A stretch of DNA of 64,000 nt from assembly GCF_058153355.1 (NCBI RefSeq), contig NZ_CM177019.1, one strand, 5' to 3'. Under the pieces are notes generated by a model that was given only the letters and a program-made list of their open reading frames with translations, was not told where the DNA came from and made no database searches. A program made the position numbers and the translations under genes. Within the stretch, counting starts at the first letter, position 1, and every line of letters begins with the position of its first letter. Below are positions 20,000 through 53,306 of this stretch, in pieces.

Positions 20000-21349
20000 A
20001 TGTCTGAAATTGTTGTCTCCAAATTTGGCGGTACCAGCGTAGCTGATTTTGACGCCATGAACCGCAGCGCTGATATTGTGCTTTCTGATGCCAACGTACG
20101 TTTAGTTGTCCTCTCGGCTTCTGCTGGTATCACTAATCTGCTGGTCGCTTTAGCTGAAGGACTGGAACCTGGCGAGCGATTCGAAAAACTCGACGCAATC
20201 CGCAATATCCAGTTTGCCATTCTGGAACGTCTGCGTTACCCGAACGTTATCCGTGAAGAGATTGAACGTCTGCTGGAGAACATTACTGTTCTGGCAGAAG
20301 CGGCGGCGCTGGCAACGTCTCCGGCGCTGACAGATGAACTGGTCAGCCACGGCGAGCTGATGTCGACCCTGCTGTTTGTTGAGATCCTGCGCGAACGCGA
20401 TATTCAGGCACAGTGGTTTGATGTACGTAAAGTGATGCGTACTAATGACCGATTTGGTCGTGCAGAGCCAGACGTAGCCGCGCTGGCGGAACTGGCTGCG
20501 CTGCAGCTGCTCCCGCGCCTCAATGAAGGCTTAGTGATCACCCAAGGATTTATCGGCAGCGAAAGTAAAGGTCGTACAACGACGCTTGGCCGTGGAGGCA
20601 GCGATTATACGGCAGCCTTGCTGGCGGAGGCCTTACACGCTTCTCGTGTTGATATCTGGACCGATGTCCCAGGCATCTACACCACCGATCCACGCGTGGT
20701 CACCGCAGCAAAACGTATTGATGAAATCGCGTTTGCCGAAGCGGCAGAGATGGCAACTTTTGGTGCAAAAGTACTGCATCCGGCAACATTGCTACCCGCA
20801 GTACGCAGCGATATTCCGGTGTTTGTCGGCTCCAGTAAAGACCCACGCGCAGGTGGTACGCTGGTGTGCAATAAAACTGAAAATCCGCCGCTGTTCCGCG
20901 CCCTGGCGCTTCGTCGTAATCAGACTCTGCTCACTTTGCACAGCCTGAATATGCTGCATTCTCGCGGTTTCCTCGCGGAAGTTTTTGGCATTCTCGCGCG
21001 GCATAATATCTCGGTGGATTTAATCACCACATCAGAAGTGAGCGTGGCATTAACCCTTGATACCACCGGTTCAACCTCCACTGGCGATACATTGCTGACG
21101 CAATCTCTGCTGATGGAGCTTTCCGCACTGTGCCGGGTAGAAGTGGAAGAAGGCCTGGCGCTGGTCGCGTTGATTGGCAATGACCTGTCAAAAGCCTGCG
21201 GCGTAGGCAAAGAGGTATTTGGCGTACTGGAACCGTTTAACATCCGCATGATTTGCTACGGCGCATCCAGCCATAACCTGTGCTTCCTGGTGCCCGGCGA
21301 AGATGCCGAGCAGGTGGTGCAGAAGCTGCATTTTAATTTGTTTGAGTAA
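20000..21349 (+). CDS. lysC: lysine-sensitive aspartokinase III
   Basis: 449-aa ORF beginning MSEIVVSKFGGTSVADFDAMNRSADIVLSDANVRLVVLSASAGITNLL, matching LysC. Confidence 0.97.
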   Translation: MSEIVVSKFGGTSVADFDAMNRSADIVLSDANVRLVVLSASAGITNLLVALAEGLEPGERFEKLDAIRNIQFAILERLRYPNVIREEIERLLENITVLAEAAALATSPALTDELVSHGELMSTLLFVEILRERDIQAQWFDVRKVMRTNDRFGRAEPDVAALAELAALQLLPRLNEGLVITQGFIGSESKGRTTTLGRGGSDYTAALLAEALHASRVDIWTDVPGIYTTDPRVVTAAKRIDEIAFAEAAEMATFGAKVLHPATLLPAVRSDIPVFVGSSKDPRAGGTLVCNKTENPPLFRALALRRNQTLLTLHSLNMLHSRGFLAEVFGILARHNISVDLITTSEVSVALTLDTTGSTSTGDTLLTQSLLMELSALCRVEVEEGLALVALIGNDLSKACGVGKEVFGVLEPFNIRMICYGASSHNLCFLVPGEDAEQVVQKLHFNLFE

Positions 21350-21493
21350 TATTTCCCTACTGGCGTATAACGCTCACCAATTGTTATACGCCATCCTCAC
21401 TAAAAATATAGATTAAATAATATCTGAAAAGCAAAATCACTCCTGTAGAACAGTATTATAATCACCGAAAAATATCATTTAACAGGAGTGTTA

Positions 21494-22423
21494 ATGGCTA
21501 CATTAATGGAAAAAGATGCGCTTTTAAACGGAGCCAGTCAGTGCATCGCGTTTTTATCAAATATCGTTGATAATTGCTCCGTTTCGTCACGTCAGGATTC
21601 AGTCGATGATCTCACACGATTAGTTGGCTATCGCGATTATCTTTATTCCACTCCAGCTGAATTTGTTGATTTTACACAGGGAAAGAGTCACCTTCAGCAG
21701 GTAAGAACTCAATATCAGCGTGAATTCAATAATACTGCACATTCAGAAAATAAAGTATCTTTTGATTCTATTTGGCAGCGTCTGACAAATCATGAAGTCA
21801 CACCGCAACAGCATCCCATTGGTTTTGTTTTAGGTGGGCAACCCGGAGCGGGTAAATCATCGCTGATTGAATTAGCAAAAAGGGAAACAAAGAATAATAT
21901 AATGATTATTAACGGTGATGATTTCAGATTTCTACACCCTGATTTTAATTATATCTACCAAACTCATGGGGATGATTTTGTTACCCATACGGCGAAATTT
22001 TCCGGCGAAACGGTCGAACGAGCAATTGAGAGGGCGATAGTCAGTAAACTCAACATTGTTGTCGAAGGAACATTTCGTAATGCCACTACGCCGCTACAAA
22101 CATTAAAAAAACTCAAAGATGCAGGCTACCAAACAAACGTCATGATAAAAACCACCTCAGCGACGGTAAGCTGGGAAAGCACCAATGAACGGTATAATAA
22201 GGACAAAGAGGCGGGAAATATCGCCCGAAAAGTGGATAAAAACCACCACGATCTCGTCACCGATTTGCTGGCAGAAAATGCCAGCAAGGTGTTTGCTTCG
22301 AACCTGGCAGATAAGTTTGCGGTGTATTCGCGTGAGAAGATGATATTTAGTTCACAAGCGGCAACGAATGACGATATTGCGACGCTTATACAGAAGGTAA
22401 TCAGCGGGAATTCACAAGAATAA
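21494..22423 (+). CDS. zeta-toxin-family P-loop kinase with an N-terminal extension of about 100 aa (EzeT-like single-chain toxin-antitoxin architecture)
   Basis: Walker A GGQPGAGKSS, followed by INGDDFRFLHPDF and VVEGTFR, which align with zeta-toxin motifs (GGQPGSGKTS / DxF / VIEGTGR); ATG at 21494 preceded by AGGAG; AT-rich relative to neighbours. Confidence 0.72.
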   Translation: MATLMEKDALLNGASQCIAFLSNIVDNCSVSSRQDSVDDLTRLVGYRDYLYSTPAEFVDFTQGKSHLQQVRTQYQREFNNTAHSENKVSFDSIWQRLTNHEVTPQQHPIGFVLGGQPGAGKSSLIELAKRETKNNIMIINGDDFRFLHPDFNYIYQTHGDDFVTHTAKFSGETVERAIERAIVSKLNIVVEGTFRNATTPLQTLKKLKDAGYQTNVMIKTTSATVSWESTNERYNKDKEAGNIARKVDKNHHDLVTDLLAENASKVFASNLADKFAVYSREKMIFSSQAATNDDIATLIQKVISGNSQE

Positions 22424-22455
22424 TAAGGGATGATGGAGTGAAATAACGCCGGGCA

Positions 22456-23247
22456 TCACGTCCGGCGTATCACTGTTTGATACAACAACCCATCCAGCTC
22501 CCTGGCATCTCCATCCCTGCTATCCGGTAACACTGGTGGAATTTCCCCACGCGCCAGTTCCGCACGAATAAACGCATGTAACAAAGGACGGCGCGGACCA
22601 TATTCCGCTTCTCCCGCGCGCTGTTTACGTTCCAGCAGTTCGTCTATTTCTGCGCGTAACGGCGCATCAAGCTCGCTTCCCGCCAGTAACTCGGCAAAGC
22701 GCATTGGCGGCACGCCTTTTCCCGCTTCAACCCAGCGTACGGCCAGCAGCGGACGCAGCACGTAAAAGTATTTTTTCAGTCGAACTTCATCGCCCTGCAA
22801 ATAGTCGCGGAAGTTTTTCTGCGCCATCGAATAGTAATGCCAGCGTGCACGCAACGAAGAAAACCACATTGGGACCATTGCCTTAAGCGCCGTTATCGTT
22901 TCTTCATCTTGTTGATAGACCACCGGAGAATCCAGCCATTCTATCAGCGTCGGATTCGCGCCTTTCAATAATCCCAGCGCCTTACGCCACTCCCAACCGG
23001 AAACATCTAATTCGTCGTCGATGGGCAGCTCGATAACATCGCGCGGCGCCTCCACCCGCAGATACCATTCCAGCGGGTGAACATACAAAAATCGTACATC
23101 GTAGTCGCTGTCGGGAGAGGCAAATCCCCAGCCGCGGCTGCCTGATTCGCAGGCGTACAGCACTTTCACGCCATAGAGACGTTCTATTTCTTTTAACTGC
23201 TGCGATACCCGTTCGCGCATCGCAGCACTGACTCCATTTAATGGCAT
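22456..23247 (-). CDS. pol-beta-superfamily nucleotidyltransferase (GS-x9-DxD motif; resembles the COG3541 / RlaP-type predicted nucleotidyltransferase family)
   Basis: CESGSRGWGFASPDSDYDVRF contains the G-S...D-x-D nucleotidyltransferase signature; about 263 aa from the ATG at 23247 (ORF-track GTG at 23256 overlaps the upstream gene); translationally coupled to the SPFH gene. Confidence 0.68.
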   Translation of the reverse strand: MPLNGVSAAMRERVSQQLKEIERLYGVKVLYACESGSRGWGFASPDSDYDVRFLYVHPLEWYLRVEAPRDVIELPIDDELDVSGWEWRKALGLLKGANPTLIEWLDSPVVYQQDEETITALKAMVPMWFSSLRARWHYYSMAQKNFRDYLQGDEVRLKKYFYVLRPLLAVRWVEAGKGVPPMRFAELLAGSELDAPLRAEIDELLERKQRAGEAEYGPRRPLLHAFIRAELARGEIPPVLPDSRDGDARELDGLLYQTVIRRT

Positions 23248-23252
23248 GTTAC

Positions 23253-24380
23253 TCACCCTTTGATATTAACCAACCCATGCAGAACCTGATCCAGACCGCC
23301 AAATACAGAGATGTTATCGATCCGCTCAGCCACTCTCTCCAGCGTTTCCAGTTCTTTTAAGCGTAACGCCACCGGGTTGTTTTCCATGACTTTAGCGGTA
23401 TTGAGTAACGAACGTGTCGCTGCCGTTTCTTCACGCCGACGAATCACATTCGCCTGCGCAGATTTCTCTGCCTCAACCAGCTGCGCGAGGATATTTTTCA
23501 TATCACCAGGCAGGACGATATCTTTCACCCCTAATGAGGCAATCTCCATACCAAATGGCAACATGCGCGATTTCACCTGTTCGCTGACAACGTCATCAAT
23601 GACCTGTTTATCTTCCAGCAACTCATCCAGCGTACGCGTACCTACCGCTTCACGCAGTGCAAATTGCAATTCCCGATACAAATGATCAATCGGCTTCGTT
23701 AACTGACTAAATGCCAATAACACGTCGCTGTAGCGCCAGTTGGCGGCGAGGTTAATCCGCAGATTGACTTTATCTTTCGTTAAGATTTCTTGCCCGCTGA
23801 CTTCCAGTACCTGCAAGCGGGTGTCAACCACTTCAGCTTCAACCAGATGGTTAATTTTCCAGTACGCAGTCAGTCCCGGCAGTAACAGCGCCTGCGTTTC
23901 ACCATCGATTTTCAGTACACCTACGTGCCAGGCCGGAACCTGCACCGTCAGTATCGCATCGCGGCCTTTAACTGCCCCTTTGCGCCGTGGCTGCAATACC
24001 GCATTCATCACCTCCGTTTGAACCTGGACTTGCTGCGTATTCATCCGCACAAGCGTCAAATCATCCTCTACACGCCAGTACAAACGACGCGTTGATGGCG
24101 GCAGGATCTCCAGCAAAATACCGTCCATATACAACGCCCCGGCTTCAGTCTCCGACAAGTCGGCCACCACGCAATATCTTTCCACCCAATCAGGCTGAAA
24201 GCGGCGCAAATAATCCGCCAGCACGTCGGGAACTTCGCTGCCATCGAGCGTAATCAGCAAGACTTCTGGCGTATTTAACCAGGGTAAAAGATGCTCGCCT
24301 GCAGGCAGCACTTTGTAGTAATCGCCATTTCTGGAGAGTAATGCCAGCTGATCTTTTCTTACGCTTATTTTCTTAATCAT
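23253..24380 (-). CDS. SPFH/band-7 (stomatin-like) domain protein with an N-terminal domain of about 190 aa and no obvious membrane anchor
   Basis: The C-terminal half (ILTKDKVNLRINLAANWRY...GVKDIVLPGDMKNILAQLVEAEKSAQANVIRRREETAATRSL...PVALRLKELETLERVA) aligns with the stomatin/HflC SPFH core and the coiled-coil AEAE region; SD AAGGA before the ATG at 24380. Confidence 0.75.
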   Translation of the reverse strand: MIKKISVRKDQLALLSRNGDYYKVLPAGEHLLPWLNTPEVLLITLDGSEVPDVLADYLRRFQPDWVERYCVVADLSETEAGALYMDGILLEILPPSTRRLYWRVEDDLTLVRMNTQQVQVQTEVMNAVLQPRRKGAVKGRDAILTVQVPAWHVGVLKIDGETQALLLPGLTAYWKINHLVEAEVVDTRLQVLEVSGQEILTKDKVNLRINLAANWRYSDVLLAFSQLTKPIDHLYRELQFALREAVGTRTLDELLEDKQVIDDVVSEQVKSRMLPFGMEIASLGVKDIVLPGDMKNILAQLVEAEKSAQANVIRRREETAATRSLLNTAKVMENNPVALRLKELETLERVAERIDNISVFGGLDQVLHGLVNIKG

Positions 24381-24908
24381 TATCTATTCCTTGCTTAACA
24401 GCCGTCGCGGAAGCAGATACGAAGCGACAGGGGAATTCCCTTTTGCCTGTTACCCGGCGTCTTTATCGGCGACGTTATCGGGGATCGCTGACTGCGCAAT
24501 CCCTCATTTTTTATTTAATAAGTTACAACCAGTATTCATTTCAGGAATGAATGCGGGAATCGAGCCCGTAATTGGCGTCAAAGGCTGACGGAACACGCCC
24601 GGAAAACAGCCTGGCCGTTCCTGGTGTGCCGACGGGGTTTAACCCCCTTTGAAATTCAGTATCAACGCAAAAGTGTTATTGCGAGAAGCGTGCCAGAATT
24701 GAGAAATATTTTTAACCAAATGAAAAATAAAGAGTTAATAAATTACTGTTGTTTGTAGGGGGAAAACTTTTTGCTAAATTTTTATCTGTATTTATCGTCA
24801 ATTATCAAGAAAGATAGATATTTAAGAAGGGAACAAAGGAATATTATCAGTTCTGCTTGCAAATGAATTCCCGTACACTGAATCCATCAGCTAACTGAGG
24901 GCACCATC

Positions 24909-25181
24909 ATGGCACTCCCCCGTATTACCCAAAAAGAGATGACTGAACGCGAGCAGCGTGAACTTAAAACACTGCTGGATCGGGCGCGTATTGCGCATGG
25001 TCGCGTGCTGACCAACTCGGAAACTAACAGCATTAAGAAAGAGTACATCGATAAATTAATGGTTGAGCGTGAGGCTGAAGCAAAAAAAGCCCGCCAGTTG
25101 AAGAAAAAGCAGGCTTATAAACCGGATCCTGAAGCGTCGTTTAGCTGGTCGGCAAATACGTCAACACGCGGCAGGCGTTAA
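24909..25181 (+). CDS. yjbD: YjbD (DUF3811) small protein
   Basis: 90-aa ORF MALPRITQKEMTEREQRELKTLLDRARIAHGRVL..., convergent with and abutting rluF as in K-12. Confidence 0.85.
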   Translation: MALPRITQKEMTEREQRELKTLLDRARIAHGRVLTNSETNSIKKEYIDKLMVEREAEAKKARQLKKKQAYKPDPEASFSWSANTSTRGRR

Positions 25182-26054
25182 TCAACGCCCCTTCTTTTTG
25201 CGCCCCGGCGAGGTAAAACGTTTACCATTTGACGCCGGGCGACCGCCTTTTTCCGCCGTTTTTTCCATCTTAACGACTGGACGTTTGATGCCCGCCGTTT
25301 TCGGTTTGGCCTTCGCTTTAGGTTTTGCCTCGGAAGAGGAATTTTCAATGAGCTTAAAGAGATCGATAAGCTCATCGTCGGTTAAATCGCGCCACTCACC
25401 CAGCGGAATGCCGCTTAAGCTGACGTTCATAATGCGCGTACGTTCCAGCTTTTTCACTTCATAGCCGAAGTATTCGCACATGCGACGGATCTGACGGTTC
25501 AGTCCCTGCACTAGGGTAATGCGAAAAACAAACGGCGCTTCTTTTTTGACTTTGCACTTTTTCGTCACCGTCCCGAGGATCGGCACCCCCGCCCCCATAC
25601 CACGAATAAATTCATCGGTAATCGGTTTATCGACCGTAACCAGATACTCTTTCTCATGATCGTTACCCGCACGGAGGATCTTATTCACCAGATCGCCGTG
25701 ATTGGTGAGGAAAATCAGCCCCTGGGAATCTTTATCCAGGCGGCCAATCGGGAACACGCGTTTGCTGTGGTTAACAAAATCGACAATGTTATCGCGCTCG
25801 CCATCTTCGGTGGTGCTGACAATACCGACGGGCTTGTTCAGGGCGATAAGTACCAAATCTTCGGCTTCCCGAGGCTCAATCAACTGACCATTTACTTTCA
25901 CAACGTCGCCGGGTTTCACCTGATCGCCAATGGTGGCTCGCTTGCCATTAAGGAACACATTGCCTTGCTCGATATAGCGATCCGCTTCGCGGCGTGAGCA
26001 AATTCCGCTTTCGCTGATGTATTTATTTAAACGGACTGATGAGTCGGGCAGCAT
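25182..26054 (-). CDS. rluF: 23S rRNA pseudouridine(2604) synthase
   Basis: 290-aa ORF beginning [40 protein letters not shown] (S4 domain plus pseudouridine synthase core). Confidence 0.93.
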
Positions 26055-26265
26055 AAATTCTCCTGTAAAAAACGGAATATACCGTACCTTTGGGTTGATA
26101 AAAAATAGTCATGTGCGAACTATTTGTTATTTCCATTGGCTTGAATTCGTTACCTGCTCAAATCACTTTCCAGAAGCAATGTGCGACATCGTGAGCCATG
26201 TCAGTAAGCGATTAAAATCACAGTGATAGCATGCCTCCCGTGATTTCTTACTAACCGGAGAAGTA

Positions 26266-26955
26266 ATGGAACTGCTTTTATTGAGTAACTCGACGCTGCC
26301 GGGAAAAGCCTAGCTGGAACACGCGCTGCCGCTGATTGCTGAACAGTTGCAGGGTCGCCGTTCAGCGGTATTTATTCCTTTCGCGGGCGTAACGCAGACC
26401 TGGGATGATTACACAGCGAAAACGGCTGCGGTTCTCGCTCCGCTGGGTGTTTCTGTCACCGGTATTCATAGCGTTGTCGATCCCGTTGCCGCGATTGAAA
26501 ATGCGGAAATTGTGATTGTCGGCGGCGGTAATACTTTCCAGTTGCTGAAACAGTGCCGCGAGCGCGGGCTGCTGGCACCAATTACTGACGTGGTGAAACG
26601 TGGCGCGCTGTATATTGGCTGGAGCGCAGGCGCTAACCTTGCTTGCCCAACCATTCGTACCACCAACGATATGCCGATTGTCGATCCGCAAGGTTTCGAT
26701 GCGCTAAATCTGTTCCCGCTGCAAATCAACCCGCACTTCACCAACGCGCTGCCGGAAGGCCATAAAGGTGAAACCCGTGAGCAGCGTATTCGCGAACTGC
26801 TGGTCGTCGCGCCAGAACTGACGATTATTGGTCTGCCGGAAGGTAACTGGATCACAGTAAGTAAAGGTCACGCTACGCTGGGTGGCCCGAACACCACTTA
26901 TGTGTTTAAGGCTGGTGAAGAAGCGGTGCCGCTGGAAGCGGGTCACCGTTTTTAA
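26266..26955 (+). pseudogene. pepE: pepE (alpha-aspartyl dipeptidase, peptidase E) interrupted by an in-frame amber codon at codon 16 (TAG at 26311..26313, where Trp/TGG is expected)
   Basis: From the ATG at 26266 the frame reads [38 protein letters not shown]...; the rest of the gene (ORF-track 26347..26955) is intact and matches PepE. Confidence 0.75.
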
Positions 26956-26960
26956 GTGAA

Positions 26961-27034
26961 TTGCCGGATGCATGATCCGGCATCTTGTACATAGTGCCTG
27001 ATGCGACGCTTTACGCGTCTTATCAGGCCTACAG
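26961..27034. repeat. REP element(s) between convergent pepE and yjbB
   Basis: GCCGGATGCATGATCCGGC hairpin and GCCTGATGCGACGCTTTACGCGTCTTATCAGGCCTAC. Confidence 0.6.
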
Positions 27035-27044
27035 GGGCACGGTA

Positions 27045-28676
27045 TTAATACTCGTCCCGTCCTTCATCTTCATCCGGCTGTTCCAGCACACTGTAAGCGA
27101 CTGAACAAAACAGCGAGTTCAGGCGCTGCATATCTCCCAGTAATCCTAAATGTAGCGAACTGGTTTCAATGCTCTGCACGTTTTGCTGATGCAGGCGATC
27201 GACGTGGGCGTGGGAATAGCGGCGATTAAGAATGCGAAAACGATGTTTGCTGCGGCGCAAACGACGGGCGCTGGTAACATCGCCAGAGAAGAAAACCGAC
27301 ATTGCCAGTTTTAAATTACTGAGCAATTGCTCATAGAGCGCATCCAGTTCCTTCAAGCCATCAAGCGAAAATGCTCGCCTTGCAGCCAGCGATTTGTCGG
27401 CAATTTCACTCCCCATGCGCTCGACGATATCGGAGGCCTGTTCAAGGTTAAGCGACATTTCGATGATCTCCGCCCAGCGACGCGACTCTTCTTCTGCCAG
27501 TTCCTCTTTTGGCATTCGCGCCAGATACAGCTTAATGGCGGTATAGAGAACGTTGATGTCATCAGCCAGCTTACGCAGCTCTTTCTCCTGCCGTGGCTCG
27601 CCGTGCATCACTTTATTCAACCCTTCCATCATCTGTTCCATGGCGTCGCCAATGCGCAGGGTTTCGCGGGCAGCGTTCGCCAGAGCAAGCGTGGGCGTAT
27701 CCAGCGCGCTGACATCCAGATGTTTAGGCCGTAGCTGGGTATCCAGTTCCGGTTCATCGCGAATAATCGTTTTGCAAAACCGTGCCATCGGGTCAACAAA
27801 TGGCAGCATGACCAGGCAGCGTACAAGGTTGTAGAAGACGTGGAAATAGATCACCAGTTCCGCTTTTGGCAATGACAACTTCCCCATTGTCTCTGCCAGC
27901 AAATGAACAAACGGCAGGATAATCAGGCTACCCACCAGCTTAAACAGCAGACTACCCAGCGCGACACGGCGGGCTGCGGCATTGGCGGCACTGTTGTTGA
28001 GCATCGCCAGCAGGCCGGAACCGAGGTTAGCACCAATCACCAGACAGAGCGCCACCGGGAAGGAGATAATGCCTGCGGCGGTCAGAGTCGCGGTCAGCAG
28101 TACAGCAGCAAGGCTGGAGTAGCTGATAATGGCGAACATCGCGCCAATCAGCGCATCCAGCAGAATATCGCCGGTTAGCGAGGCAAAGATCACCTGAACG
28201 CCGTTTGCCTGGGTGATCGGCGTTACGGCCTGCACAATCAATTCCAGCGCCAGTAAAATCAGCCCAAGACCAATACCGACACGGCCTAGTTGCCCGGCGC
28301 GTGACTGTTTGCGGCCGAGGAAAAAAATCACGCCGATAAAAATAAGTAACGGTGACAGCCAGGATAAGTCGAAGGTGAGAATACGCGCCATTAGCGCCGT
28401 CCCGACATCTGCACCCAGCACAATCACCAGCGCAGGCGCGAGAGCAACCAGATCCTGGGCGACAAACGAGGTCACCAGCATGGTGGTGGCATTACTGCTC
28501 TGCACCAGTGCGGTAACGCCGATCCCCGCACAAAAGGCGAGCGGCTTTTTTTCGACGCTCCGGCTCAGAACGGTACGCAGACGTGCGCCGAAGACGCGCA
28601 TTACGCCTGTTCGAACAATATGTGTCCCCCAGACCAACAGGGCGACGGCAGAAAGCAGGTGAAGCAGCGTTAACAC
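27045..28676 (-). CDS. yjbB: Na+/phosphate symporter family membrane protein
   Basis: 543-aa polytopic ORF beginning MLTLLHLLSAVALLVWGTHIVRTGVMRVFGARLRTVLSRSVEKKPLAF with a C-terminal PhoU-like region, in the position of yjbB. Confidence 0.88.
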   Translation of the reverse strand: MLTLLHLLSAVALLVWGTHIVRTGVMRVFGARLRTVLSRSVEKKPLAFCAGIGVTALVQSSNATTMLVTSFVAQDLVALAPALVIVLGADVGTALMARILTFDLSWLSPLLIFIGVIFFLGRKQSRAGQLGRVGIGLGLILLALELIVQAVTPITQANGVQVIFASLTGDILLDALIGAMFAIISYSSLAAVLLTATLTAAGIISFPVALCLVIGANLGSGLLAMLNNSAANAAARRVALGSLLFKLVGSLIILPFVHLLAETMGKLSLPKAELVIYFHVFYNLVRCLVMLPFVDPMARFCKTIIRDEPELDTQLRPKHLDVSALDTPTLALANAARETLRIGDAMEQMMEGLNKVMHGEPRQEKELRKLADDINVLYTAIKLYLARMPKEELAEEESRRWAEIIEMSLNLEQASDIVERMGSEIADKSLAARRAFSLDGLKELDALYEQLLSNLKLAMSVFFSGDVTSARRLRRSKHRFRILNRRYSHAHVDRLHQQNVQSIETSSLHLGLLGDMQRLNSLFCSVAYSVLEQPDEDEGRDEY

Positions 28677-33918: not shown

Positions 33919-38115
<4,197 letters not shown>

Positions 38116-51984: not shown

Positions 51985-53306
51985 CGCGACAGTTTTGCCA
52001 ATAGCGTTTTGCGCGTAATCCCTAACTGACGGGCGGCTTCGGTTTTGTTGCCGCCCGTTTTCTCCAGCGCCGCCAGAATCACTTCTTTTTCGACTTCCAC
52101 CAGCGGCTGAATATCCTGACTTTGCACCAGCGGGATCGGCGTACTGGCAATCGCCAGCGGCAGCTCGCGTTCGGAAATATATTCCCCGGTCAGCAGCACC
52201 ACCGCCCGTTCCACCGCGTTTTCCAGTTCACGAATATTTCCCGGCCAGTCGTAGTGAATCAGCAGATCCATCGCCTGGGGCGTAAACCCTTTTACCGCCT
52301 TGCGATTGCGTTCGGCAAAGCGCTGCAGAAAATGGTTAGCCAGCAGAGGAATATCTTCCCGCCGTTGCCGTAGCGAAGGTACTTCAATCGCCACCACATT
52401 CAGGCGATAGTAGAGATCCTGACGAAAACGCCCGGCCTTTACCTCAGCGGCAAGATCGCGATGAGTCGCCGCAATCAGCCGGACATCAACCGAGATAGTC
52501 TGATTGCTACCGACACGCTGGACTTCGCGCTCCTGAATCGCACGCAGTAGACGAACCTGCATCATCGGTGAGATATCGCCAATTTCATCGAGAAACAGCG
52601 TGCCGCCGTCTGCCTCCACAAAGCGCCCTTCCCGCCGTTTGTCGGCTCCGGTAAACGCCCCTTTTTCGTGACCGAACAATTCAGATTCCAGCAAGGATTC
52701 GTTGAGTGCCGCACAGTTGAGCGTCACCAGCGGCTTTTCACTCCGTGCGCTACTGGCGTGAATCGCCCTGGCGACCAGCTCTTTACCGGTGCCGGAATCG
52801 CCGTGGATCAGCACCGTGGCTTCCGATGGCGCGACGAGGGCAATTTCACTGAGCAGGTGCTGCATCGCCGGGCTTTTACCGACCATACCGAACTGGCTGG
52901 CAGACACCGCAGGCGTTTCAGCATCAACACTGTGCGTATGCGCAAGCGCCTTTTCCAGGGTTGCCTGCAGGTTATCGAAATCCAGCGGCTTGATGAGATA
53001 ATCCAGTGCCCCGGTTTTCAACGCCTCTACCGCCGTCTCGACGCTGGAGTACGCGGTCATAATCAGTACCGGAATTGCCGGATTTAACGCTTTGATCTCT
53101 TTCAGCGTGGCGATGCCATCCATCTCTGCCATTCGCACATCACAAAGCACAAGATCAAAAACCTGTTCCCGCACTTGCTCCAGCGCCTGTCGCCCGCTGT
53201 TCGCCAGCGCGACGTTATAGCCCCAGCCGCGCAGCAATGCCTGCAAGATAGTGCAGTGGCTAATGTCATCATCCACCACCAGAATATCGATATTATCGTG
53301 CGTCAT
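51981..53306 (-). CDS. zraR: sigma54-dependent two-component response regulator
   Basis: 441-aa ORF with a receiver domain ([14 protein letters not shown]...), an AAA+ sigma54-interaction domain ([14 protein letters not shown]) and a C-terminal HTH. Confidence 0.93.

Follow-up and report, generated by a model that had tools for sequence, protein, structure and literature searches.

Two tightly coupled genes on the minus strand of a 64-kb window of Escherichia fergusonii DNA, encoding an SPFH/Band-7 ('slipin') protein and a Pol-beta nucleotidyltransferase, are the subject of this analysis, in which they are compared with known RNA-repair operons (window coordinates are used throughout; Table 1). 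An initial annotation of the window had proposed the pair as an undescribed module of an accessory island, with a role in phage defence or stress response. Both open reading frames (ORFs) lie where it had placed them, in one operon, and their junction reads ...AAAGGGTGAGTAACATGCCA... (also given as ...GGGTGAGTAACATGCC...). The band-7 TGA stop codon (23255–23253) is followed by the rlaP ATG at 23247, leaving a 5-nt spacer and a protein of 263 residues, or is overlapped by 4 nt if translation begins at the GTG at 23256, giving 266 residues; both of the start options named earlier can be read from the sequence, and the ATG is the choice of the Prokaryotic Genome Annotation Pipeline (PGAP) in E. 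coli. The matches listed in a search with the SPFH protein were Escherichia entries at least 98% identical to it, reaching 100% identity in E. fergusonii. The region is variable in E. coli, since the band-7, rlaP and zeta kinase genes were found in 1424 of 5426 complete genomes (26%), where their products are annotated as "slipin family protein", "nucleotidyltransferase domain-containing protein" and "zeta toxin family protein".

Table 1. Features of the band-7/rlaP locus and its surroundings.
Feature	Position	Strand	Description
Zeta-toxin-family P-loop kinase	21488..22423	+	Pfam Zeta_toxin, E 6.5e-40; convergent to RlaP
GC-rich hairpin, possible bidirectional terminator	22447..22467	.	CGCCGGGC-ATCAC-GTCCGGCG; overlaps the RlaP stop codon, within the 32-nt convergent spacer
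RlaP-family (PF10127) Pol-beta nucleotidyltransferase	22456..23247	-	263 aa; alternative GTG start at 23256
SPFH/Band-7 ('slipin') protein	23253..24380	-	375 aa, soluble; two N-terminal beta-repeat modules (1-69, 70-140), SPFH core, long C-terminal helix
Structured leader RNA, ~290 nt	24381..24670	-	Between the promoter and the SPFH start codon
tRNA T-arm relic	24553..24571	-	UUACGGGCUCGAUUCCCGC; within the leader; covarying hairpin next to it at ~24530-24550
Sigma54-type -24/-12 promoter element	24680..24695	-	TGGCACGCTTCTCGCA; ~300 nt upstream of the band-7 ATG
Upstream activator-site-like array	24783..24816	-	TATC-N6-GATAA-N4-GATA-N6-GATA; 90-135 nt upstream of the sigma54 element

The Band-7 and RlaP proteins

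The SPFH identity proposed for the first gene was confirmed by Pfam Band_7, which matches residues 147–318 of the protein (E 6.6e-24), and by its fold: in an AlphaFold2 (AF2) model with a predicted local distance difference test (pLDDT) score of 87.8, the nearest structures are subunits of SPFH cages. The protein lacks a membrane anchor, as the initial annotation had it (the maximum 19-residue Kyte-Doolittle mean is 1.13), and likewise an NfeD partner, its neighbours being RlaP and the zeta kinase; the extra N-terminal part, put at ~190 residues, measures ~146. The beta-strand subdomain with which the SPFH domain begins is duplicated twice in tandem over the N-terminal 140 residues, and HHalign matched the copies in all three pairings with a probability of 98% and E ~1e-14. 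NCBIfam HflK/HflC models scored 19–31 bits with this protein, far under their cut-offs of 134–660. The copy number of the beta-repeat differs between members of the clade, in which Band-7 variants of 500–550 residues (our loci L006, L020, L034–L036, L039, L044, L048, L051, L069, L081 and L086) carry further N-terminal copies.

The second protein is covered over its full length by Pfam PF10127 RlaP (E 2.9e-96, model positions 1–248 of 249), in agreement with its earlier description as a nucleotidyltransferase. The active-site string CESGSRGWGFASPDSDYDV is present as described, although its spacing is GS-x8-DSD or GS-x10-DYD rather than the GS-x9-DxD first assigned to it, and the window enzyme retains all of the residues (G36, S37, D46, D48 and D50) that are invariant across 28 RlaP orthologues. 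It is 46–87% identical to the RlaP encoded 3' of rtcB in the canonical operons described below and 56–61% identical to RlaP from other loci in Pseudomonas; a sequence search of the Protein Data Bank (PDB) with RlaP returned zero entries. A CD-NTase identity was rejected, as the protein is a full-length RlaP and no PADLOC model matched it. The name RlaP was given for precisely this rtc-type operon context (RlaP paper), and addition of nucleoside monophosphates (NMPs) to RNA 3' ends has been demonstrated for the enzymes of P. fluorescens and P. aeruginosa. With Mn2+, Pseudomonas RlaPs attach one or two NMPs to an RNA 3'-OH, using any nucleoside triphosphate (NTP) and also deoxynucleoside triphosphates (dNTPs), with a preference for the 5' half of a cleaved-tRNA mimic and no action on DNA or protein (RlaP preprint). 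By analogy with these orthologues, the window RlaP would most likely add one or two NMPs to the 3'-OH of RNA.

Conserved partners of the Band-7 clade

When 1.84 billion representative proteins were searched without a profile, 542 clusters were obtained at E<=1e-30, most of them aligning over all 375 residues of the Band-7 protein. Gene context was surveyed in 80 loci, one genome per species, with Band-7 relatives 42–82% identical to the window protein, and the loci were queried by tblastn with RtcB, RtcR, RlaP and zeta. RtcB was found in 58 of these loci, a divergently transcribed RtcR in 56 and RlaP in 32, and all three occurred together in 28, with rtcR pointing away from a band-7, rtcB, rlaP operon; four further loci have rtcR divergent from band-7-rlaP without rtcB. 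The canonical layout consists of rtcR, divergent from a sigma54 promoter that is followed by a tRNA-like RNA, band-7, rtcB and optionally rlaP. Metagenomic relatives display the same arrangement of RtcR divergent from Band_7-RtcB, and RtcA comes after RlaP in Pseudomonas and beta-proteobacteria, not in enterics. Relatives that can be aligned over their full length adjoin RtcB and RtcR in the 58 and 56 loci just counted, and syntenic orthologues occupy the same chromosomal site as the window pair.

In nearly all non-enteric loci a tRNA-like gene lies upstream of band-7, called by ARAGORN on the same strand at a distance of ~350 nt and with odd anticodons. A covariance model of this "b7a-tRNA", built from 28 ARAGORN-called tRNA-like genes, found full-length copies in 15 additional loci and, in 17 of the 18 loci without RtcB, copies scoring 57–73 bits immediately upstream of band-7, so that the tRNA-like RNA is the most constant partner of the Band-7 clade. 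Arrays of tRNA or tRNA-like genes, up to ~10 in L078, stand beside band-7 in L073, L078, L077, L046, L029 and L038, as opposed to the single b7a-tRNA.

Other neighbours were also seen. In Acaryochloris marina (L081, 6539–9363), a long-form Band-7 protein of 527 residues is followed by a polynucleotide kinase (PNK)-like P-loop kinase and a Thg1-like tRNA 5'-end repair enzyme and is preceded by two tRNA-like genes, which places a different set of RNA-end enzymes with the same scaffold; among the cyanobacterial contexts this pairing was seen in one locus only, and the neighbours of the Nostoc Band-7 gene form a restriction–modification system. Several non-enteric operons have recurrent small ORFs of 120–246 residues separating band-7 from rtcB (L004, 7224–7607; L015, 8181–8543; L030, 8486–9226), which NCBIfam did not match and which may be additional operon components; clustering of unassigned ORFs within operons was noisy in high-GC loci.

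An abstract by Burroughs and Aravind reportedly names "SPFH/Band-7 modules", "a novel tRNA-like molecule" and "a novel nucleotidyltransferase" as components of RNA repair. By orthology and gene context, we assign the gene pair, in a reduced form, to the RtcR-regulated Band-7/RtcB/RlaP RNA-repair system, a class set out in 2016. That class, an RtcR-regulated Band-7/"b7a-tRNA" system, was a computational prediction (Burroughs & Aravind, NAR 2016, as related in a citing paper), and the pair, through its match to a system already named, loses the description "undescribed" on the initial annotation's own terms.

The Escherichia locus and its control region

In Enterobacter, Siccibacter, Pluralibacter and Pseudocitrobacter, the same site carries rluF and yjbD, a transporter gene with or without a toxin–antitoxin module, and rtcR divergent from band-7-(rtcB)-rlaP, which converges on lysC-pgi. 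The closest intermediate is a Citrobacter freundii record with a Band-7 protein 83% identical to that of the window, in which rluF-yjbD is followed by RelE/XRE genes and by rtcR divergent from slipin and nucleotidyltransferase genes that converge on lysC-pgi, without rtcB. In the window, tblastn found neither RtcB, the ligase of this operon class, nor rtcR in cis at the locus; a stretch at 52194–52889 (minus strand) that tblastn aligned at 38% identity with RtcR's sigma54-activator domain belongs to the gene of another bacterial enhancer-binding protein, not to rtcR. Because the fuller operon stands at the same site in Enterobacter, Siccibacter, Pluralibacter, Pseudocitrobacter and Citrobacter, the Escherichia copy is an in-situ reduction of it between yjbD and lysC, with loss of rtcB and rtcR and gain of zeta.

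Between E. fergusonii and E. coli, the ratio of nonsynonymous to synonymous substitution rates (dN/dS) is 0.027 for band-7 and 0.106 for rlaP, both genes having a dS of 0.22 and the flanking yjbD one of 0.21; the equality of dS with the flank and the low dN/dS therefore indicate that the pair has been vertically inherited under purifying selection. The lysC-yjbD spacer of E. coli K-12 is homologous to the window from 24779 onward and keeps a 26-nt piece of the leader (24447–24472) as well as half of the activator-site array, scars that mark K-12-type strains as deletion derivatives; judged from these remains, island-negative strains look like the product of a two-step deletion. The Band-7 protein is absent from phage records and was found in 10 of 72,556 "plasmid" records, mostly chromids or chromosome fragments. 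With no phage and essentially no true plasmid matches, the "accessory island" of the initial annotation, taken as a mobile defence island, gives way to an ancestral enterobacterial locus reduced in place.

The sigma54-type element upstream of the leader has counterparts throughout the family: the pattern TGGCA[CT]-N5-NNGC occurs exactly once per upstream region, at the homologous place, in 14 of 14 enterobacterial Band-7 loci, and the E. coli K-12 rtcBA promoter CTGGCACGACGGTTGCA resembles the window element. The pattern alone is not significant in the window (5 matches against 3.1 expected), and the element owes its weight to its conserved position, not to window-wide rarity. Further upstream, the TATC/GATA array has a single occurrence in the 64-kb window, and none of 100 shuffles contained it; it is present once per locus in eight others (L001, L007, L008, L010, L011, L021, L065 and L067) and abuts the rtcR start in all seven of these that carry rtcR. 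From its sequence and placement, the array is probably the RtcR binding region. The RtcR of K-12 is 62–72% identical to the RtcRs of Band-7 loci, and full-length rtcR is present in 4838 of the 5426 E. coli genomes; with the island in 1424 of the same genomes, at least 836 island-bearing strains therefore carry rtcR. Since the array has been kept, the K-12 regulator is this similar and rtcR is this widespread, control of the window promoter in trans by an unlinked RtcR is plausible.

The transcribed leader is a conserved structured RNA in enterics. RNAalifold on 10 enterobacterial leaders gave 63 pairs with 92.5% of cells paired, and 34 pairs showed compensatory changes, compared with 16.2 ± 2.6 in shuffles (0 of 500 reached 34) and 5–9 in slid controls. 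A search of Rfam at E<=1 over positions 21000–25500 returned two chance-level matches only, neither accounting for the leader, and ARAGORN called no tRNA in the window. The best match of the b7a-tRNA covariance model (R1) within 20000–28000 lies at 24571–24553 (11.3 bits, E ~0.04) and spans model positions 49–67 only; in an alignment with full b7a-tRNAs from other phyla, this T-arm and the hairpin next to it fall on the corresponding T-arm and hairpin, and GGnTCGAnTCC is invariant among enterics. With the same model, other Enterobacteriaceae likewise retain the T-arm only, and Providencia and Proteus stand in between. A full tRNA in the window leader was rejected, the covariance model matching the T-arm only.

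At the other end of the operon, the toxin-like kinase that the initial annotation had noted beside the pair is confirmed by its Pfam match. It bears an N-terminal extension of ~100 residues without family assignment and scores 125.6 bits with NCBIfam PezT, under the cut-off of 470. The 138-nt lysC-zeta spacer contains no ORF of 60 residues or more, hence no antitoxin-sized ORF. Local GC content is 0.42 at the zeta gene and ~0.51 nearby, and in relatives rlaP abuts lysC directly; on this comparison, the gene is an Escherichia-specific insertion between rlaP and lysC. It was rejected as a module component, as none of the 80 non-Escherichia Band-7 loci carries zeta, and a PezAT zeta/epsilon toxin–antitoxin module including the pair was rejected for want of conserved linkage and of an upstream antitoxin ORF and for its convergent orientation. 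The kinase is probably a neighbour outside the module. The hairpin in the convergent spacer is followed on the minus strand by TTATTTC and could, as a weak possibility, be a bidirectional terminator; a terminator scan raised no flag there, and the generic scan for sigma70 promoters and terminators gave counts at or below shuffle expectation and was uninformative.

Three further observations concern related records and the wider window. A 425-kb C. freundii sequence labelled 'plasmid unnamed2' (L091, NZ_CP151862.1) has the core genes rluF, lysC, pgi and yjbE/F and is probably a misassigned chromosome fragment or chromid. In a metagenome-assembled genome (MAG) labelled Pseudocitrobacter (L067), yjbD and rluF are 97% identical to those of the window and Band-7 and RlaP just 80%, a step that suggests either a boundary of recombination at this point or a MAG that is chimeric or misclassified. 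GC content dips at 3001–4000 (0.31) and 34001–36000 (0.36–0.39) of the window, against ~0.52, which suggests that these segments were horizontally acquired.

A probable remnant of an RNA-repair operon and its relation to known systems

We consider the pair likely to be the surviving core of an RNA-repair operon under RtcR/sigma54 control, with a part in the response to RNA damage. The ancestral enterobacterial locus, from yjbD to lysC, would have held rtcR divergent from a sigma54 promoter, a tRNA-like leader, band-7, rtcB and rlaP; Escherichia would have lost rtcB and rtcR in place and gained zeta, keeping the array, the promoter, a remodelled leader, band-7 and rlaP. RNA damage would activate RtcR, supplied by the unlinked rtcBA locus, which would then act on the sigma54 promoter in trans. 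The resulting transcript would bear the leader, its structure supported by covariation, as a derivative of the Band-7-associated tRNA with a putative function, and the anchor-less Band-7 protein, to judge from its fold, could oligomerise as other SPFH proteins do, giving a ring- or cage-shaped scaffold to which the leader RNA, damaged RNAs or both would bind. RlaP would put one or two nucleotides on the 3' ends of damaged RNA, an activity known from its Pseudomonas orthologues, and sealing, if any, would fall to an RtcB encoded elsewhere.

Several points weigh against this reading. To our knowledge, no function has so far been demonstrated for this Band-7 clade. Neither a ligase nor RtcR is encoded in cis, so that we infer the coupling to rtcBA/rtcR from comparison; the array is a conserved motif and, as such, a putative RtcR site only; and the -12 element of the window is TCGCA, where TGGCA or TTGCA is found elsewhere. 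The leader forms no cloverleaf, its tRNA likeness consisting of the 19-nt T-arm match at E ~0.04 only. The 3'-OH product of RlaP is chemically incompatible with the 3'-phosphate that RtcB needs (RlaP preprint), and deletion of P. aeruginosa PaFlo8, described as "embedded within the rtc locus", gave no phenotype in growth, virulence, motility, biofilm or oxidative-stress assays (2026 paper).

The mismatch between RlaP and RtcB led the authors of the RlaP preprint to suggest the existence of an RNA 3'-kinase. By adjacency only, the zeta kinase could conceivably be this 'missing' enzyme. Characterised zeta-family enzymes phosphorylate 3'-OH groups of UDP-N-acetylglucosamine (UNAG) or nicotinamide adenine dinucleotide (NAD). 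An extended form of the RNA-repair reading, speculative and on balance unlikely, would have Band-7 and the tRNA-derived leader form a soluble, vault-like ribonucleoprotein cage that captures damaged RNAs for RlaP, with the operon in Escherichia as a second, previously unnoticed part of the RtcR regulon that works in trans alongside rtcBA, and with zeta perhaps supplying the RNA 3'-phosphorylation that RlaP products would need before RtcB could ligate them.

A role that requires no ligase has to be taken seriously as a rival, because band-7-rlaP has been kept after loss of rtcB in at least six genera, because RtcB cannot join RNA ending in the 3'-OH that RlaP leaves, and because the clade also pairs with non-ligase RNA-end enzymes, namely the PNK-like kinase and Thg1-like enzyme of Acaryochloris. 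Band-7 and RlaP, perhaps with the leader RNA, would then be sufficient by themselves, for instance to mend or mark 3' ends of tRNAs and other RNAs or to sequester damaged RNA, possibly still under RtcR-dependent expression, and the occurrence of Band-7 with a tRNA-like gene alone would fit. RtcB is, however, encoded in the same operon in 28 of the 32 loci with RlaP, and we rate this alternative as rather improbable.

A stand-alone anti-phage module, in which the nucleotidyltransferase signals or modifies and the SPFH protein serves as effector or scaffold, possibly with the zeta toxin, would account for the variable presence of the locus (26% of E. coli genomes) and for the adjacent toxin-like kinase, and a role against ribotoxins used in conflicts has been proposed for RNA-repair systems as a class (RlaP paper). 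PADLOC v2, however, assigned neither the SPFH protein nor the nucleotidyltransferase to any family, the zeta ORF giving a marginal PDC-M04B match (E 0.005); the nucleotidyltransferase is a full-length RlaP with a characterised activity of short 3' tailing of RNA; and the locus is ancestral and syntenic, with no phage copies and with plasmid matches that are chromids or misassigned chromosomes. The conserved neighbours are RtcR, RtcB and the tRNA-like RNA and not zeta (0 of 80). We regard this alternative as very unlikely: the stress-response half of the original proposal, with a nucleotidyltransferase modifier and an SPFH scaffold, fits the data, whereas phage defence does not, and the pair should be struck as a false lead from candidate new defence systems. 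Least probable of all is a decaying, functionless remnant of an rtc-type operon, heading for the deletion seen in K-12, as the lost ligase and regulator, the 74% of E. coli genomes without the locus and the K-12 scars might suggest, for both ORFs are intact, with dN/dS of 0.027 and 0.106 at a dS of 0.22, the promoter, array and leader structure are conserved, the last with compensatory changes, and rtcB-less band-7-rlaP recurs in five other genera.

Since 2016, comparative genomics alone has supported the Band-7 branch of bacterial RNA repair, its mechanism undemonstrated. About a quarter of E. coli strains, together with E. fergusonii, hold a minimal version of it, comprising promoter, structured leader, Band-7 and RlaP under purifying selection, which from its upstream sequences appears to be still wired to RtcR/sigma54. 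The remnant RNA-repair operon would thus offer a genetically tractable model for a soluble SPFH protein acting with a non-coding RNA, for a second RtcR operon controlled in trans and for the feeding of the RlaP 3'-OH product into repair, and it carries the prediction of a second RtcR-dependent operon in E. coli.

Among known systems, the window locus is closest to the Band-7/b7a-tRNA/RtcB system, of which the P. aeruginosa rtc locus (PaFlo8, PaRlaP) is an example. The two share orthologous Band-7 proteins, 42–82% identical over their full length including the N-terminal repeats, orthologous RlaP (46–87% identical), and a sigma54 promoter and RNA element at the equivalent position upstream of band-7; the window copy differs in lacking rtcB, rtcR and rtcA in cis, in a tRNA-like gene replaced by a ~290-nt leader that retains only the T-arm, and in the zeta-family kinase gene inserted beside rlaP. 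E. coli rtcBA-rtcR and Salmonella rsr-yrlBA-rtcBA are under RtcR/sigma54 control with a promoter architecture like that of the window, and the Salmonella system (Ro60/Y RNA/RtcB) likewise joins a protein scaffold to a tRNA-like non-coding RNA and RNA-end enzymes. In the window, however, an SPFH protein takes the place of Ro60/TROVE as scaffold and RlaP that of RtcB/RtcA as enzyme, and the RNA has no Rfam match to Y RNA or YrlA. The classical SPFH systems, HflK/C-FtsH and QmcA-YbbJ (SPFH-NfeD), are membrane-anchored and have an NfeD or protease partner, whereas the window protein has neither feature, carries two extra N-terminal duplications of the beta-subdomain and is partnered by RNA enzymes and a non-coding RNA. 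Outside bacteria's SPFH systems, a likeness extends to the vault (major vault protein, MVP, with vault RNA), which shares tandem beta-repeats, an SPFH-like 'shoulder', a long helix, solubility and association with a small non-coding RNA, and Foldseek aligns MVP with the Band-7 model over 406–463 columns (E 4e-10 to 9e-8).

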